From: Planctomycetota bacterium
GTDB lineage: Bacteria > Planctomycetota > Phycisphaerae > SM23-33
DNA length: 56,191 nt
Direction: 5' to 3'
Assembly: GCA_034190305.1 (NCBI GenBank)
Contig: JAXHSV010000001.1
Location: 1-56,191 of the forward strand
Shown: positions 9,247-53,810 of the stretch, one piece after another
How the letters are laid out: the number at the start of each line of letters is the position of its first letter
Numbering within the stretch: the stretch's first letter is position 1
Position numbers and translations under genes: made by a program
The notes under the pieces: generated by a model
What the model saw: the letters and a program-made list of their open reading frames with translations, nothing else
The model's database searches: none
Told to the model about the DNA's origin: nothing

Positions 9247-10498
9247 TTATAAGGGGCGTCCCGCCGACCGGCCGCAGCAATTCTTGAACTTACGTCCCGA
9301 ACCGCACGGGCAGGGTTCGTTCCTGCCGACCCTGCCGGCGGTGGTTCGTTGTCTTCCGCCCGTCTCGGGCAGGCGACCGTCTTTGACGTACGCGGCGATG
9401 CGATTCAGTTCCGGAAGCGCAGCCTTGAAAAACATCTTGTATCCTTCGCAAAAGTGATTTACCCGCTCAGGTCCGCCGCCGATTGGAACGTGGTGCTTCG
9501 GACATCCGCCCCAACAGTATCGCAGGAATTCGCAATCTTTACACGCAGCCGGTAGTTCGGTCTTCAATTCGGCGAATTTTTCCAATTTTGTGTCGAGTAA
9601 CAGTTCGGCCAGCGGGCGATCCATAATGTTTCCAATCCGCCAGTCAGCCAAGACGAAATGATCGCAAGCGTAGAGGTCGCCGTTGAATTCCAGCACGTGT
9701 GCGTTGGCGCACCGTTGCGAATTGGTGCACATCGCCGCCCGGCCGTAAATGATTGTCTGTATTACGCTGTCGATAAAGCGCTCGGAGACTTTCCCGACGT
9801 CCCTGCCGGACCACAACTCAAAGACCTCCAGATAGAACCGCCCGAACTGCTCGGCGGTGCACGAAAATTACCGCCGGTTTGCCGGTGGCGTTGCGCTCCA
9901 GAATCGGGATGAACTGAAGGTTCCGCAGGCCGCGATTGACAAAATAGCGGTAGATGTCGCCGGCGTGCGGGGCGTTGGCGCTGTTGAGCGTCGCCAGGAC
10001 GTTGAATTCCACGTTGTGCTTCCGCAGCAGTTCCAGTCCGGCCCAGGCTCGATGGAAAGTCGCCTCGCCGGCGCGGTCGCGACGGTAATGGTCGTGCCAC
10101 TGATGCGGGCCATCGATGCTGATTCCGATAAGGAACTTATTCTCGGCGAAGAACTCGCACCACGCCTCGTCCAGCAGCGTGCCGTTGGTCTGGAGTGCGT
10201 TTGTGACGGTCTGACCGGCGAGGCGATTCTCCGCCTGGAATGCTACCGCCCGGCGAAAGAAATCCATCCCCGCAAGCAAAGGCTCTCCTCCCTGCCAGTG
10301 AAATTCGCACCGCTCCGACATCGCATCCATGTATTGTTTCGTAAATGCGGCAAGGACATCGTCCGGCATTATGAAATTCTCAACCGGCGGGTAGAGTTCC
10401 TTCGGCTTGGCGGTGTAGTAGCAGTAACGGCAGGAGAGGTTACAGACGCCGCTGACCGGCTTGGCCATTATGTTGAACGGACGGATAAATTCACTCAT
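9247..10498 (-). pseudogene. Anaerobic sulfatase-maturating enzyme (radical SAM/SPASM), split by a frameshift near 9864-9870
   Basis: The N-terminal ORF (9818-10498) has CNLSCRYCYY (CX3CX2C) and GGEPLL. The C-terminal ORF (9247-9816) has SPASM-like Cys clusters (CANAHVLEFNGDLYACDH, CKDCEFLRYCWGGCPKH). The second frame resumes as FSCTAEQFGRFYLEVFELW right at an A4/T4 run. Confidence 0.8.
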
Positions 10499-10525
10499 GC
10501 GCCCTTGCCCGCACCTTTTCGACTT

Positions 10526-11177
10526 TTACGCCGGCGCGATTCGCGGCATCCTTACCGGTTCGCTCTGCAAAGTGGCCTGGAGAAACTCGTGCAGCAGTTG
10601 GGATTTCAACTCGGTGGCGGATGAGTCGTGTTTTTTCCTCATCCGGCGGCCAGGGCTCGAAATAATCGGACCAGTCGGCCAGGCCCTTCTGTTCCATCCA
10701 TATCGCGTAGTGTTGTCCGACGAGGTATTCGCTGCCGTGCATCCTTGCGGTTTCCAGGTGCTCGAAGCCGTAGAAAGGCCCGTGAAAGTTCCGCCAGAAA
10801 TCCAGGTCGCGGATGAGGGGAAGACATTCGATGGATTAGGCGCCCGGTTGCGACGCCAGAGGCTGGAAATGGGCTTTACCAATAAGCGCCGTGAAATATC
10901 CTGCCTGTTTTAACATGTCGGTGATTCTCGGAACATCCTCGAAAAGTTTCGTTCCGAGCGCCCAGGCGCCGTGCTGTGAGGGATACATTCCGGTGATTAT
11001 GCTGGCCCGCGAAGGCGTGCAGGTCGGATTGGGGCAATAGGCGCGGTCGAACCGCACGCCTTCACTGCAAAGCCGATCCAGCGCCGGTGTCTTAATCCGA
11101 TCATTTACCGACCCCAGCGTGCTGTAATGCTGCTGGTCGGAAGTAATCAGGAGTATATTGGGTCTATTCGACGGCAT
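10526..11177 (-). pseudogene. Cys-type sulfatase remnant (in-frame TAA, internal deletion, frameshift)
   Basis: The N-terminus is MPSNRPNILLITSDQQH...CTPSRASIITG (FGly motif at 11007-11021). A TAA at 10836-10838 is in frame with the continuing homology SIECLPLIRDLDFWRNFHGPFYGFEHLE. The frame changes at the T6 run (10631-10636) into a typical sulfatase C-terminus, ELKSQLLHEFLQATLQSEPVRMPRIAPA. About 217 codons remain, against 450 or more expected. Confidence 0.8.
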
Positions 11178-11226
11178 CTTTTTTTCACCTTTTCTCATCT
11201 CGCGGGCAAGGCGCATCTGCGGCGAT

Positions 11227-13260
11227 TCAGGATCGCAATTCGGCGCCGAGTTGTCCGGCCAGGGCTTCGATAACCTGTCCGACCATCTCATCGACCTGAT
11301 CCGACCGGAGCGTCCCGTCGTCCGAACGATAAGTCAGCGAGACCGTTACGGACTTCTTCCCGCTCTGTATCTGCCTGCCGTGATACGTTCCGACATATCG
11401 AAGCGATTCCCGCATAGGCTGGTCGGTCGAATCTATCGCGCCGGCCAATTCACGCCAGGTAACGGCTTCGTCCACCACGAGCGAAAGGTCGCGTACAACG
11501 GCGGGAAACTTCGGCAGAGGTCCGTAGGTCCGTTCGGCGCCGGCATAGTCCATCAGCATATCGAAATTAATCATCGCTGCGGCGTGGGGCTTCTCCAGGC
11601 CGAAGTAGTCCAGCGCTGCGTCGGCGACCATTCCGATTAATCCGATGCGACGCCCATCGAGATGGATTTCCGCTGCCTGTCCTTCGGAAAGACCAGCCAC
11701 CGGACCGGCGAGAACCTCCAATTTCGCCGCCGGCGCAGATAGGCTTATCACCGCCTCAAGTGCGCCTCGCAGGTCCGAGATATTACGTTGTGTAACCATC
11801 CCAAGGGCGGTGTATTCCTCCGGAAGGTCGCCGGAGTCAGCCGGTCGTTCATCTCGTCTCACGGCAGGCGGGAATACCGCAGCCAATTCATACAGGTTCA
11901 CATCTTCGTTTCCGACGTCCTGATTGGTCTTGCATGCCCGTAGCAACGAGCCGAGCAGCGTGGGGCGGAGCATGTTATTCGTCCGCCGGACGGCGGCATC
12001 GACGTGCAGACCCGTCTGGAAGCCGAAAAGGGCGGCGGCTTCATCGTCGGTGAAAGTGTAGGTAATAGCCTCGTCGAATCCGGCGGCGGACAGGATGTCA
12101 CGGACGCCCTGCCGTAAAGATTCGGACTCACTTGCGCCCGTCACCGGATGCGTTACTTCATTGTGGACGGGTATCTTGTCGTAACCGTGCAGACGGGCAA
12201 CTTCCTCTATAAGGTCGATCTCGCGCCGCAGGTCCGCCCGCCATGCGGGAATCCGGCAGACGATCCTGCCACTTTTGAGTTCGGCTGACAACCCTAGACG
12301 ATTGAGAATTTCAGCCTGCGCCGCATCGTTAACCTCAACGCCCAGCAGCGACCGGCAGCGATCGGTCCGCAGAGTTACTTTCGGCGGTCTGTAAGGATCG
12401 GCCCAAACGTCGATGACGCCGCAGGCAGGTTCACCCCCGGCAGTCTGGAGTAACAACTGGCAGGCGCGTAATGATGCAGTCTCAACCGCGACAGGGTCCA
12501 CACCCCGTTCGAAACGGTAGGACGATTCGCTCATCAGCGACAGGGCGCGGGCGGCTTTGCGAATGGTCAGCGGGTCGAATCGGGCGCTTTCCATGAGGAT
12601 ATCGGTCGTATCGTCGCCGACTTCGCTTTCAAGCCCGCCCATGATACCGGCCACTGCAACGGGCTTGTCGGCGTCGGCGATGACGAGCATTTCTTCGGTC
12701 AGCGTGCAGCGCGTCCCGTCGATACTGACGATCTGCTCGCCGGGCAGGCCCCGGCGAACGATGATTCGCCCGCCGGATAAACGATTCTGGTCGAATGCGT
12801 GCAGCGGCTGACCGAACTCCATCAGGACGTAGTTGGTAACATCGACGACGTTGTTAATCCCCCGCAGGCCGACGGCCTCGAGTCGCTCGACCATCCACGA
12901 CGGCGATGGGCCGACCTTCACGCCGCGGATTATACGCGCGGTGTAGCGAGGACACATGTCAGGGGCAAGCACTTCGACGCTGGTGAGTTTCTCAACGCCC
13001 GTCGATCCGACAGACACAGCCGACAGGTCCGGAAGTTTCAATTCCAGACCCAGCGCCGCAGCCGCTTCCCGCGCCACGCCGATGTGACCCAGACAGTCCG
13101 GGCGATTGGATGTAACCTCCAGGTCAAGAACTATGTCGGTGTCGGTTTCCTCGGCGGACTCGCAGCACAAGCCGATGCGCGTAAAGACATCGGCCAGTTC
13201 GCCCGCCGGCATTGCCGATACGTCAACGTAATCCGTCAGCCAGTTCAGTGATACCTTCAT
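11227..13260 (-). CDS. pheT: Phenylalanine--tRNA ligase beta subunit
   Basis: MKVSLNWLTDYVD start, B3/4, B5 and FDX-ACB-like C-terminal regions, about 677 aa. Confidence 0.9.
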   Translation of the reverse strand: MKVSLNWLTDYVDVSAMPAGELADVFTRIGLCCESAEETDTDIVLDLEVTSNRPDCLGHIGVAREAAAALGLELKLPDLSAVSVGSTGVEKLTSVEVLAPDMCPRYTARIIRGVKVGPSPSWMVERLEAVGLRGINNVVDVTNYVLMEFGQPLHAFDQNRLSGGRIIVRRGLPGEQIVSIDGTRCTLTEEMLVIADADKPVAVAGIMGGLESEVGDDTTDILMESARFDPLTIRKAARALSLMSESSYRFERGVDPVAVETASLRACQLLLQTAGGEPACGVIDVWADPYRPPKVTLRTDRCRSLLGVEVNDAAQAEILNRLGLSAELKSGRIVCRIPAWRADLRREIDLIEEVARLHGYDKIPVHNEVTHPVTGASESESLRQGVRDILSAAGFDEAITYTFTDDEAAALFGFQTGLHVDAAVRRTNNMLRPTLLGSLLRACKTNQDVGNEDVNLYELAAVFPPAVRRDERPADSGDLPEEYTALGMVTQRNISDLRGALEAVISLSAPAAKLEVLAGPVAGLSEGQAAEIHLDGRRIGLIGMVADAALDYFGLEKPHAAAMINFDMLMDYAGAERTYGPLPKFPAVVRDLSLVVDEAVTWRELAGAIDSTDQPMRESLRYVGTYHGRQIQSGKKSVTVSLTYRSDDGTLRSDQVDEMVGQVIEALAGQLGAELRS

Positions 13261-50322: not shown

Positions 50323-51783
50323 ATGGATAAAATCGTAGCCGACGGTATAACTTTTGACGATGTTCTGCTGATTCCCGCCAGGTCCGATGTCATTCCCCGC
50401 GACGTGGACACGTCCACAAACCTGACGCGGCAGATCAGGTTGAATATTCCTCTCATCTCGGCCCCGATGGACACTGTTACCGAGGCGGTGCTGGCTATCG
50501 CCCTTGCCCAGGCAGGGGGTATTGGGATCATTCACAAGAATCTTTCGCCCAAAGCCCAGGCAAGAGAAGTCGAGAAGGTCAAACGCAGTGAGAACGGCGT
50601 AATCGTCGATCCGGTAACGCTCGGGCCTGAGGAATCCACTGCGACGGCCAGGCAGAAGATGGCCGATCACAACGTTTCCGGCTTCCCTATCGTCGGAGCG
50701 GACGGAAAACTCGTCGGCATCCTGACCCGGCGCGACATGAAGTTCCTCTCCGACGACCGCCCCATCAGCGAGGTGATGACCGCCGAGAATCTCGTAACCG
50801 CCAAGCCGGACACAACGCTCGATGAGGCGGAAAAAATCCTCAATCGCCACAAGGTTGAAAAACTCCTGCTGGTCGATGGGACCGGCAAACTAGCCGGTCT
50901 GATTACGATGCGGGACATCGAGAAACTGCGGCAGTTTCCGCGAAGTTGCAAGGATGCCCGCGGGCGCCTGCGAGTCGGAGCGGCCGTGGGGGTCCGCGAC
51001 GATGAGCGGGCCGAGATGCTCATCGAGGCGGGCGCAGACGTAATCGTGGTCGATACGGCACACGGACACAGCAGCAATGTCATCGGCGCGGTTGAGCGGA
51101 TCAAGTCCGCCCATGACATAGACGTCATCGCCGGAAATGTCGCCACAGCCAAAGGCGCCGCCGACCTTATCGCCGCCGGCGCCGACGCCGTCAAGGTCGG
51201 CATCGGTCCGGGGGCTATCTGCACAACGCGTATTGTCTCCGGCGTGGGGGTTCCGCAGGTATCAGCCATATACGAATGTGCCCGCGCCGCCGACGCCAAA
51301 GGCATCCCCGTCATCGCCGACGGCGGAATTCGCCACAGCGGCGACATTACCAAGGCAATCGCCGCCGGGGCGTCGGCCGTTATGATGGGAAGTCTCATGG
51401 CCGGGCTGGACGAATCGCCCGGGCAACTGGTGATCTTCAAGGGCAGGCGGTTTAAAACCTATCGAGGAATGGGTTCGATCGGCGCGATGGTCGCCGGATC
51501 AGCCGACCGTTACGGTCAATCCGAAAAGGAAAAACTCGTCCCCGAAGGCGTCGAGGGGCGGGTTCCCTACCGAGGCCCGCTGGGCGAGTTCGTCTATCAA
51601 CTTGTCGGCGGGCTTAGAGGCGGAATGGGATACTGCGGCGCCGGGACTATCGAAGACCTGCGAACAAAGGCGCAATTCATACGCATCAGTACAGCCTCGC
51701 TCATCGAAGGCCATCCACACGACATTACAATAACACACGAAGCACCAAACTACTCCGCCGGACAGAAAAACAACCTGGAATGA
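50323..51783 (+). CDS. guaB: IMP dehydrogenase
   Basis: [13 protein letters not shown] pair, [11 protein letters not shown] catalytic loop, YRGMGS. Confidence 0.95.
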
Positions 51784-51789
51784 GACGAC

Positions 51790-52766
51790 ATGCGAACCCG
51801 CACCTTTCGCTATAAGAATCTATAAGAATCTATAAGAATCTATAAGAATCCTATCTACAGCCTCGCAATCGACGCCATCCGAGACTGCCAGATTACCGAA
51901 GTTGACGGCGTGTACTACCTGACAGGAACCAGCCCGCCCGTCTGGGGGGAAGGGCCGAACCCGGGAGTCAAATTGTACTCCTCGCCGGACCTGCTGAACT
52001 GGAAGTTTGAGACGTTCCTTACAGACCGGGCCGGACTGGACCCGGGCGTGTGGTATTACGACCGGTTCTGGGCGCCGGAAATCCACCGCAAGGATGGGCG
52101 GTTCTGGCTGACGTTCAACTGCCGCAACGAAACCGCCGAAATACCATACCCTCATTCGTCCGGCCTGGCGGTGGCAGATAGCATCACCGGTCCTTACGAA
52201 ATACTCACGCACGACAAGCCCCTGATTGACCGAACGAACGATGCAACCCTGTTCGCGGACGATGACGGAAGGACATACATCTACGTTACCGGCATCATAG
52301 GCTGGGAGATGAACCTGGAGGCGTGCAGGCTGATTGACGGGCCTTTTTAAAGTCGCCGGGGCGCTGGGACGGCATCGGCATAGAAGGCCCGTTTGTAATC
52401 AAGCGGGACGGCATGTATTACATGTTCTATTCCTCGTGGACGCGGGGATATGAAGTCGGCTATGCGACCGCGTCTCACCCCAAAGGCCCCTGGAAAAAGT
52501 ACGAAGGAAACCCGATATTCGGGGCGCAGAACAGAAAAACCTGTGCAGGATACGGCGGACGGTTCACGGGGAACCCCCCCGGCTGCCCGTACGCCGCAGC
52601 CGGGCACAACGCAATATTCACCGGTCCGGACGGACGAGGCTGGATCGTCTGCCACTACCAGGAAACAGACAAGCCCGATTCCCTCGGCTTCGACCCGATA
52701 TGGATCGAAGACGGCGTCATCAAAACCAACGGCCCGACCTGGACCGAACAGACAATCGAAATTTGA
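51790..52766 (+). pseudogene. GH43-family glycoside hydrolase, disrupted by a 10-bp x4 tandem repeat (in-frame TAA) and a frameshift near 52344-52351
   Basis: ATG at 51790 (MRTRTFRYKN) is in the same frame as NPIYSLAIDAIRDCQITEVDGVYYLTG, but TAA at 51823-51825 lies inside the repeat. The second half (FLKSPGRWDGIGIEGPFVIKRDGMYYMFYSSW...) resumes in the -1 frame at a T5A3 run. Confidence 0.8.
51810..51849 (+). repeat. Perfect tandem repeat (CTATAAGAAT) x4
   Basis: Read directly from the sequence. The unit equals codons 8-10 of the GH43 ORF. Confidence 0.95.
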
Positions 52767-52806
52767 TTTTCCGGTCAGGTAATGCCGAAAAGCAAGGGGA
52801 GAAAAG

Positions 52807-53413
52807 ATGAACCGATGGACAATTATGCTATTCGTAACGGCTGCTGTAATCGTCGGATGCAGGGAAAAGTTTCAAGACAATGCAACATCCCGTATTTACA
52901 ACGAACTTGAGCATAGGAAGCAGGAAGTTATCGACCTTCGAGCAGCCAGTCCGATCAGGGAGGACAATCCGCTTTTCGACAGTTACGAGGTGGAGGCTGC
53001 CAATTCACTTGCCCGGCTGGCCAAGGGGGTGGATCTTGCCGGGGCAAACGACTACTTCGGGAAGTGGGGTCCCGCCCGCGACCGGAGCCAGAACCACGAC
53101 AACTTCACCTACACATTCTGGATATGGGGACTACAGGCTTGCTTTCCGTCTTACCGGTCCGGAAAGTAGAAAAACGTTTTTCATCGAGACCAAAACTTCG
53201 ATTAAAGGCTGGTTGCCCGATAGCAAGATCGAGTTTACCGAGTTACTCAAAATACCGGACGATCTCAAGCCGGGCCGATACAAACTCGCACTCGCTGTTG
53301 TTGAGTCGGAAACGGAAAATCCCGCCGTCCGTTTGGCAATAACCGGCCGAGCAAGGGATGGCTGGTATCATATCAGCGAGTTTGACGTGACGGCGCTCGG
53401 CGCGAAAAGATAG
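52807..53413 (+). pseudogene. DUF4832-like lipoprotein, frameshifted at a G4 run (53126-53129)
   Basis: Lipobox-like MLFVTAAVIVGC at the N-terminus. FTYTFWIWG continues in the +1 frame as DYRLAFRLTGPE...LKPGRYKLALAVVE...GWYHISEFDV. Confidence 0.65.
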
Positions 53414-53583
53414 CGTAAGGTATTTTGTGTAAGTTTGCGGCGGCATCAGAAATGACGAACAAGTTATAACGCCAGACCCAGCCCAGCCATAGCCATGGCT
53501 GGGCTGTAATGTCCGCTCTTCGACCGATTTTGCGAAAACCTGCGGTTGTCCGCTTTCGGAACTTACACAAAATACTTGACGCT
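53412..53583. repeat. MITE-like unit: 24-bp terminal inverted repeats enclosing a GCCCAGCCAT hairpin (H4)
   Basis: AGCGTAAGGTATTTTGTGTAAGTT (53412-53435) versus AACTTACACAAAATACTTGACGCT (53560-53583), 22/24 complementary. Internal CAGCCCAGCCAT-AGCC-ATGGCTGGGCTG at 53479-53506. Confidence 0.6.
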
Positions 53584-53810
53584 ATCGAGTGTTTCAGCCA
53601 TTTGTGATGTCCTTTCGCAACGAATATAATCTCGACATGAATCTTGCGCCCGGGCCTGTCCCGCCGGCAGCATAAATATGCAGGAACAACCTCCGCCGGG
53701 GCAAGAAAAAGATGTGGATTAATCATTACTGGTTGCAAAAATGACGGCTTCGGGGCATGATATAGTTACAGTTTGCTACCCGATCAAAACAGGTGAAAGG
53801 ATTCCGATAA

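Follow-up and report, generated by a model that had tools for sequence, protein, structure and literature searches.

A 10-nt unit that stands four times in perfect tandem just inside the start of a GH43 glycoside hydrolase gene raises the question of whether the locus is a slipped-strand ON/OFF switch or a dead gene. The window, which here means the whole stretch of 56,191 nucleotides that was analysed, belongs to a draft genome (G000) of 3.1 Mb in 379 contigs, with 91.6% completeness and 5.4% contamination. The host is an uncultured, environmental planctomycete with a small genome, and the assembly may be a population consensus. A preliminary description of the locus had read the array as a slipped-strand switch and named a one-off inactivating expansion as the alternative. 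Our analysis indicates that the GH43 gene is very probably a recently dead gene, the first of three in a decaying glycan-degradation cassette 3' of guaB, and not a switch. The features of the gene and of its upstream neighbour are as follows.

50323-51783, plus strand: guaB (IMP dehydrogenase), intact (Pfam IMPDH, 2.7e-160), which served as synteny anchor
51790-52766, plus strand: pseudogene of a GH43 glycoside hydrolase, disabled independently by two lesions (Pfam PF04616 on the read-through)
51810-51849, plus strand: tandem array of four perfect copies of CTATAAGAAT, expanded from one ancestral copy encoding (R)YKN
51823-51825, plus strand: premature TAA at codon 12, made by the second repeat copy and lying upstream of the invariant Asp22 (from the translations)
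52344-52348, plus strand: junction of a 10-bp deletion in a T run, with T-run/CTTT microhomology, relative to contigs L027, L064, L065, L066 and L042

The tandem array and its ancestral state

The stretch 51790-51860 reads ATG CGA ACC CGC ACC TTT CG, then (CTATAAGAAT)x4, then CCTATCTACAGC, and the array starts 20 nt into the GH43 gene, counted from the ATG at 51790. Tandem Repeats Finder (TRF) gives a period of 10, 4.1 copies and 100% matches over 51810-51850 (score 82), and the perfect fourfold repeat first described at 51810-51849 therefore stands. The window contains four occurrences of the 10-mer, where shuffles give an expectation of 0.04. Regarding its possible recurrence elsewhere, a search of the 3.1-Mb assembly with a two-copy pattern, one mismatch allowed, found no second array of this unit. 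From the ATG at 51790 the frame continues CGA ACC CGC ACC TTT CGC TAT AAG AAT CTA TAA, and the TAA at 51823-51825 is codon 12, as had been proposed. When copy numbers from 0 to 7 were enumerated, every array of at least two copies gave TAA at codon 12. The claim that the array inactivates the gene thus holds, and the accompanying argument that two or three copies would shift the frame is irrelevant, since all these states end at the same stop. Once the unit is repeated, each of the six reading frames contains a stop, and consequently the tract is untranslatable within any working allele.

Two other readings of the 5' end were rejected. The first in-frame ATG, GTG or TTG after the TAA is the GTG at 51910; reinitiation there would fall beyond the invariant Asp22, and the 10-bp deletion lies downstream in any case. 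The array could also be seen as a promoter, with four TATAAG boxes at 10-bp spacing, but a sigma-70 scan of 51600-52100 gave no promoter-like site.

The remainder of the genome contains further perfect arrays, with periods of 7, 14, 15 and 16 nt in a whole-genome TRF run. By a stop-to-stop ORF check only, most of the arrays whose period is not divisible by 3 (7, 14 and 16 nt) are situated between long ORFs. The idea of a genome-wide set of coding-region repeat tracts was discarded, as TRF combined with stop-to-stop ORFs revealed no pattern of tracts at gene starts. The striking array sites in the genome are C93:5949-6328, C56:1-121, C317:16560-16667 and C72:3655-3810. Among these arrays, one at a contig end has 4.2 copies of a 91-nt unit whose beginning resembles the 5' part of a tRNA gene (GGGCTCGTAGCTCAGCTGGTTAGAGC...), two contig ends carry 15-17 copies of the 7-mer ACAGGCT, and 9.8 copies of a 16-mer stand between ORFs that are convergent or divergent.

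The repaired read-through protein matches PF04616 with 136.4 bits against a cut-off of 32.2 (E 1.6e-39), both GH43 fragments exceed this cut-off in a profile search of the genome, and the nearest solved structure to the read-through is 4qqs, a GH43 (3.6e-29). Intact homologues have 317-324 aa and 75-86% identity to the window; the individual values for P0001, P0002 and P0003 are 85%, 75% and 67%. Their N-termini read M(Q/K)(T/A)RTFRYKNPIY, with F6, N10 and P11 invariant, and R21 and D22 are invariant columns of the homologue alignment. Read with one copy, the window gives MRTRTFRYKNPIYSLAID, which agrees with the intact homologues MQTRTFRYKNPIYSPAID and MKARTFRYKNPIYGPAID and bears out the earlier statement that this is a normal GH43 N-terminus. 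Over 13 homologues D22, D141 and E189 are invariant, and all three are kept in the reading frames of the window; from GH43 motifs, we take them to be the putative catalytic base, pKa modulator and acid, respectively.

At the DNA level, five contigs from three related taxa were compared: L027, from an ENA metagenome; L042, from the Planctomycetota MAG AUK262; and L064 (GCA_030631125.1), together with L065 and L066, two further assemblies of the L064 taxon. The unit is single-copy in all five orthologous contigs, reading CTACAAAAAT in L027, ATATAAGAAT in L064, L065 and L066, and TATAAAAAT in L042; the whole one-copy stretch of L064 reads CGATATAAGAATCCTATCTAC. The gene guaB lies directly upstream of GH43 in L027, L042, L064 and L065, and L066 begins about 40 nt before GH43 with the same spacer sequence as L064 and L065. 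Since the orthologous GH43 genes are intact and have a single unit, one copy is the ancestral state, in which the 10-nt stretch encodes Tyr-Lys-Asn of the conserved FxYKNP N-terminus.

The public record splits the pseudogene into two protein entries, P0122 (165 aa, 51853-52350) and P0127 (128 aa, 52380-52766), for which the only possible starts are a non-canonical ATC at 51853 and a non-canonical ATA at 52380. The two entries are an annotation artefact and not two real genes.

The 10-bp deletion and the age of the inactivation

The preliminary description had placed a second lesion, a frameshift, near 52344-52351. The lesion is real, but comparison with the three related taxa shows that 10 bp have been deleted. 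These taxa have GAC GGG CCT TT(T/C) ATC TGC TTT (TTA/ACT) AAG, whereas the window reads GAC GGG CCT TTT TAA AG; in continuous sequence this is GGGCCTTT(T/C)ATCTGCTTT...AAG in the three taxa and GGGCCTTTTTAAAG in the window. Short T-rich direct repeats flank the deletion, which drops a conserved Ile-Cys-Phe (the Cys is nearly invariant) and shifts the frame to a TAA at 52348-52350. The same 10-bp deletion is present in two Logan contigs, L026 (run SRR24907504, 1619 nt) and L063 (run SRR24907505, 1121 nt), which are independent assemblies from two runs. A homopolymer sequencing error was rejected as its cause, as 10 bp are missing relative to three taxa and the lesion is reproduced in both other assemblies.

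The consequence for the switch reading is direct. In the copy-number enumeration the one-copy reading still stops, at codon 177. An uninterrupted full-length GH43 frame is thus absent from the window, with one stop at codon 12 and, after the frameshift, another at codon 177. The proposal that only the one-copy state is ON stands in so far as a single copy is the functional ancestral state, but it fails for the window, where the one-copy frame ends at codon 177. A downstream frameshift had itself been named, together with a fixed copy number, as the mark of a dead gene rather than a switch, and the downstream lesion is present here.

The lesions are young. By the Nei-Gojobori method, dN/dS of the window read-through is 0.094 against L027, 0.100 against L064 and 0.080 against L042, and the values among intact GH43 genes are 0.087-0.096. 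The window has six lineage-specific amino acid changes, compared with 9-12 in its two nearest relatives. The low dN/dS, the lack of excess amino acid changes and the retention of D22, D141 and E189 show that inactivation was recent, and the gene was under purifying selection for nearly the whole of its branch. The perfect state of the four-copy array means that its expansion is very recent or ongoing; a switch would look likewise.

Decay of the neighbouring cassette

The cassette is best seen in L064, where the order is guaB, GH43 (322 aa), RGL11_C (547 aa), a 520-aa gene, a 168-aa gene and a UDP-glucose-dehydrogenase-like gene (UGDH). In the window, the guaB stop lies 7 nt before the GH43 ATG, and the guaB product has 90% amino acid identity to those of L064 and of G005, a genome from the genus of the window. 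In G005, guaB is followed directly by a 169-aa gene and UGDH, and the three-gene cassette is absent. Downstream of GH43 the window contains the following features.

52807-53124, plus strand: codons 1-106 of the 520-aa gene of L064 (tblastn, 82% identity over residues 1-106; blastn, 87% over 339 nt)
53130-53413, plus strand: DUF4832-like C-terminal fragment in another frame (Pfam DUF4832, 2.7e-4, below the cut-off and covering profile positions 144-214 only)
53409-53586, unstranded: MITE-like, high-copy element with 27-nt terminal inverted repeats that are 93% complementary, directly after the gene debris

In L064 the RGL11-like gene separates GH43 from the 520-aa gene; a search of the whole of G000 gave no match to it. 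Positions 52786-52865 of the window align to the start regions of both the RGL11-like gene and the 520-aa gene of L064, which suggests that the RGL11-like gene may have been deleted by recombination between the two similar gene starts. Homology to the 520-aa gene ends at about 53124, and the DUF4832-like tail beyond it has no homology to the 520-aa protein of L064; this fragment is gene debris at a rearrangement point. A simpler view of 52724-53413 as a plain frameshifted DUF4832-like lipoprotein was dropped, as comparison with positions 3382-6769 of L064 resolves the stretch into codons 1-106 and an unrelated tail. The MITE-like element is 172-178 bp long, with an inner 12-nt perfect hairpin, and about 35 or more full or partial copies with 95-99% identity are found in G000. 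Many of these are at contig ends, and the element is thus a main cause of assembly breaks. An MMPL transporter gene follows it in the window.

Among six genomes of the genus, Pfam GH43 is found only in G000, in the form of the two window fragments; the profile search gave none in the five others, which are 77-96% complete. A relaxed need for the enzyme is indicated by the loss of the RGL11-like gene, the truncation of the 520-aa gene, the absence of the cassette from G005 and the lack of GH43 in the other genus genomes searched.

Further glycan and sulfate-ester genes are broken in the same contig. In the region 9247-11291, on the minus strand, a gene resembling an anaerobic sulfatase maturase (anSME) is in two pieces, the ORFs 9818-10498 and 9247-9816, and the sulfatase ORF beside it ends after 151 aa (10836-11291, also minus strand).

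Two JGI metagenome contigs contain a 47-aa relic of the same GH43 subfamily (FIIKRDGVYYMFYSSWTRGYEVGYAT...), at 1729-1872 of L067 and 1078-1221 of L068, between an M14 peptidase gene and dapB. The relic clusters at 90% identity or more with the C-terminal GH43 fragment of the window. GH43 genes of the window type seem to have decayed in other lineages too.

Gene death, copy number and the switch readings

Both the two lesions and the decay of the cassette favour the alternative that the preliminary description had left beside the switch, a one-off inactivating expansion in a dead gene. Orthologues in the same synteny are intact, whereas the window has a 30-nt stop-bearing insertion and a 10-nt deletion, and either lesion by itself would kill the enzyme. 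The first duplication probably came from slippage during replication, for which the microhomology amounts to a single nucleotide, as the unit starts with C and a C follows it; with two copies present, slipped-strand mispairing would then have brought the number to four. The array would be without function and would persist neutrally, with no selection against it, and its length is probably still mutable without any phenotypic effect. The locus resembles an ordinary small-indel pseudogene in its intact orthologues, two disabling lesions, decayed neighbours, loss of the cassette in a relative and a dN/dS that is still coding-like, hence a recent death. It differs in having as its insertion four perfect copies in a row instead of one duplication, which points to repeated slippage after the first duplication.

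The order of events leaves room for a different history, in which a reversible OFF expansion was the first hit and the deletion and cassette decay followed once selection had lapsed. The dN/dS values, by which both lesions are recent, are compatible with such a former switch. We nevertheless consider it unlikely: no strain was found to carry the array and lack the deletion, the reverse order of lesions fits the data equally well, the orthologues are without the tract, and there is no sign of selection for mutability.

A second alternative is that the copy number itself is wrong, the array being really absent, shorter or longer than four copies. In favour of this, the source assembly is a draft of metagenome type, the number of tandem copies can come out wrong in De Bruijn assembly, and the counting limit of a Logan contig is 3-4 copies. 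However, the first base of L026 corresponds to window position 51821, and this contig opens with TATAAGAATCTATAAGAATCTATAAGAATCC (29 nt of the array plus the right flank). For the Logan assembly we assume k = 31. In simulated k=31 de Bruijn graphs, the first right-unitig k-mer of L026 arises only when there are at least four copies, and with one to three copies the unitig passes straight through the array. The independent contig thus breaks exactly where an array of four or more copies would break it, which supports at least four copies, although a Logan contig cannot count beyond 3-4. Moreover, the 40-nt array is shorter than an ordinary read, and the remainder of L026 matches the window without a difference over 1619 nt, one poly-C indel excepted. 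An artefact or miscount is accordingly very doubtful.

The indel is in the poly-C run at 52574-52580, which is C7 (in frame) in the window and L063 and C8 (an extra frameshift) at about 753-760 of L026. Either the population is heterogeneous at this site of a dead gene, or one of the assemblies is in error.

Heterogeneity of another kind would be needed if the array were a live hypermutable tract, with part of the population lacking the deletion and toggling between one copy (ON) and several (OFF) while the consensus records a dead allele. If true, a free-living planctomycete would have a carbohydrate-active enzyme under the control of an ON/OFF switch based on duplication, but we regard this reading as highly improbable. 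Protein searches covered 5.8 billion proteins. Exact look-ups of both GH43 ORF fragments returned only two short Logan contigs, neither of which spans the array; an exact look-up of the window guaB product gave no match, and a scan of metagenome contigs for the same species with the GH43 protein gave a best identity of only 42%.

The locus does share some features with known switches. At contingency loci, the ON state includes translation of the tract, and the tract is kept across strains. The window tract is like those of the simple-sequence-repeat contingency loci of Neisseria, Haemophilus and Campylobacter (reviewed in PMC11868660 and PMC5084427) in its position near the 5' end of a coding sequence and in a length that could change by slipped-strand mispairing. 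It is unlike them in that the unit, once repeated, has stops in every frame and can never be part of an ON allele, and in that the orthologues are without the tract. The 10-nt unit is also outside the 1-6 bp of microsatellite motifs, in the definition given in the review PMC4700210. The closer likeness is to cap3A of the type 3 capsule of Streptococcus pneumoniae, which undergoes tandem-duplication phase variation (Waite et al. 2001, as summarised in PMC11163986): in that summary a duplication inside the ORF is OFF, the unduplicated state is ON, and reversion occurs by precise loss of copies. In the window, precise loss leaves the gene broken by the 10-bp deletion downstream. The window locus also differs in belonging to an environmental planctomycete and in encoding a predicted cytoplasmic-type glycosidase.

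That copies are gained and precisely lost in a working switch, one copy being ON and two or more OFF, is likewise highly improbable: an array at the 5' end of the ORF, perfect and hence recent and mutable, whose extra copies could be lost to restore the conserved N-terminus, and the duplication-OFF, no-duplication-ON precedent documented for cap3A (PMC11163986), speak for it, but slippage cannot restore the deletion that ends the one-copy frame at codon 177 and that recurs in both independent assemblies, the orthologues (L027, L042, L064, L065 and L066) are array-free, the adjacent cassette genes are gone or truncated, the close relative G005 has lost the cassette cleanly, GH43 is otherwise absent from the genus genomes searched, and the product, as predicted from its sequence, has no signal peptide and is not a typical phase-varied surface structure. 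Overall, a tract does lie within the ORF (51810-51849), but none of the copy numbers from 0 to 7 gives a full-length product and the unit is single-copy in five of five orthologous contigs. The locus therefore lacks both a reachable ON state, which defines a switch, and a conserved tract, and it has every mark of a pseudogene; the slipped-strand switch of the preliminary description is not sustained.

As an ordinary recent pseudogene with a slippage-born array, the GH43 locus is minor in itself. It carries two cautions: the presence of short, perfect tandem copies at the 5' end of a gene is not enough to call a phase-variation switch, and in this record the public annotation has made two 'proteins' of one pseudogene. 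It is also a clean example of gene death caught early, with two small slippage-type lesions in a sequence that still looks selected, within a cassette that close relatives show as intact, decaying or gone, the three stages of its loss.
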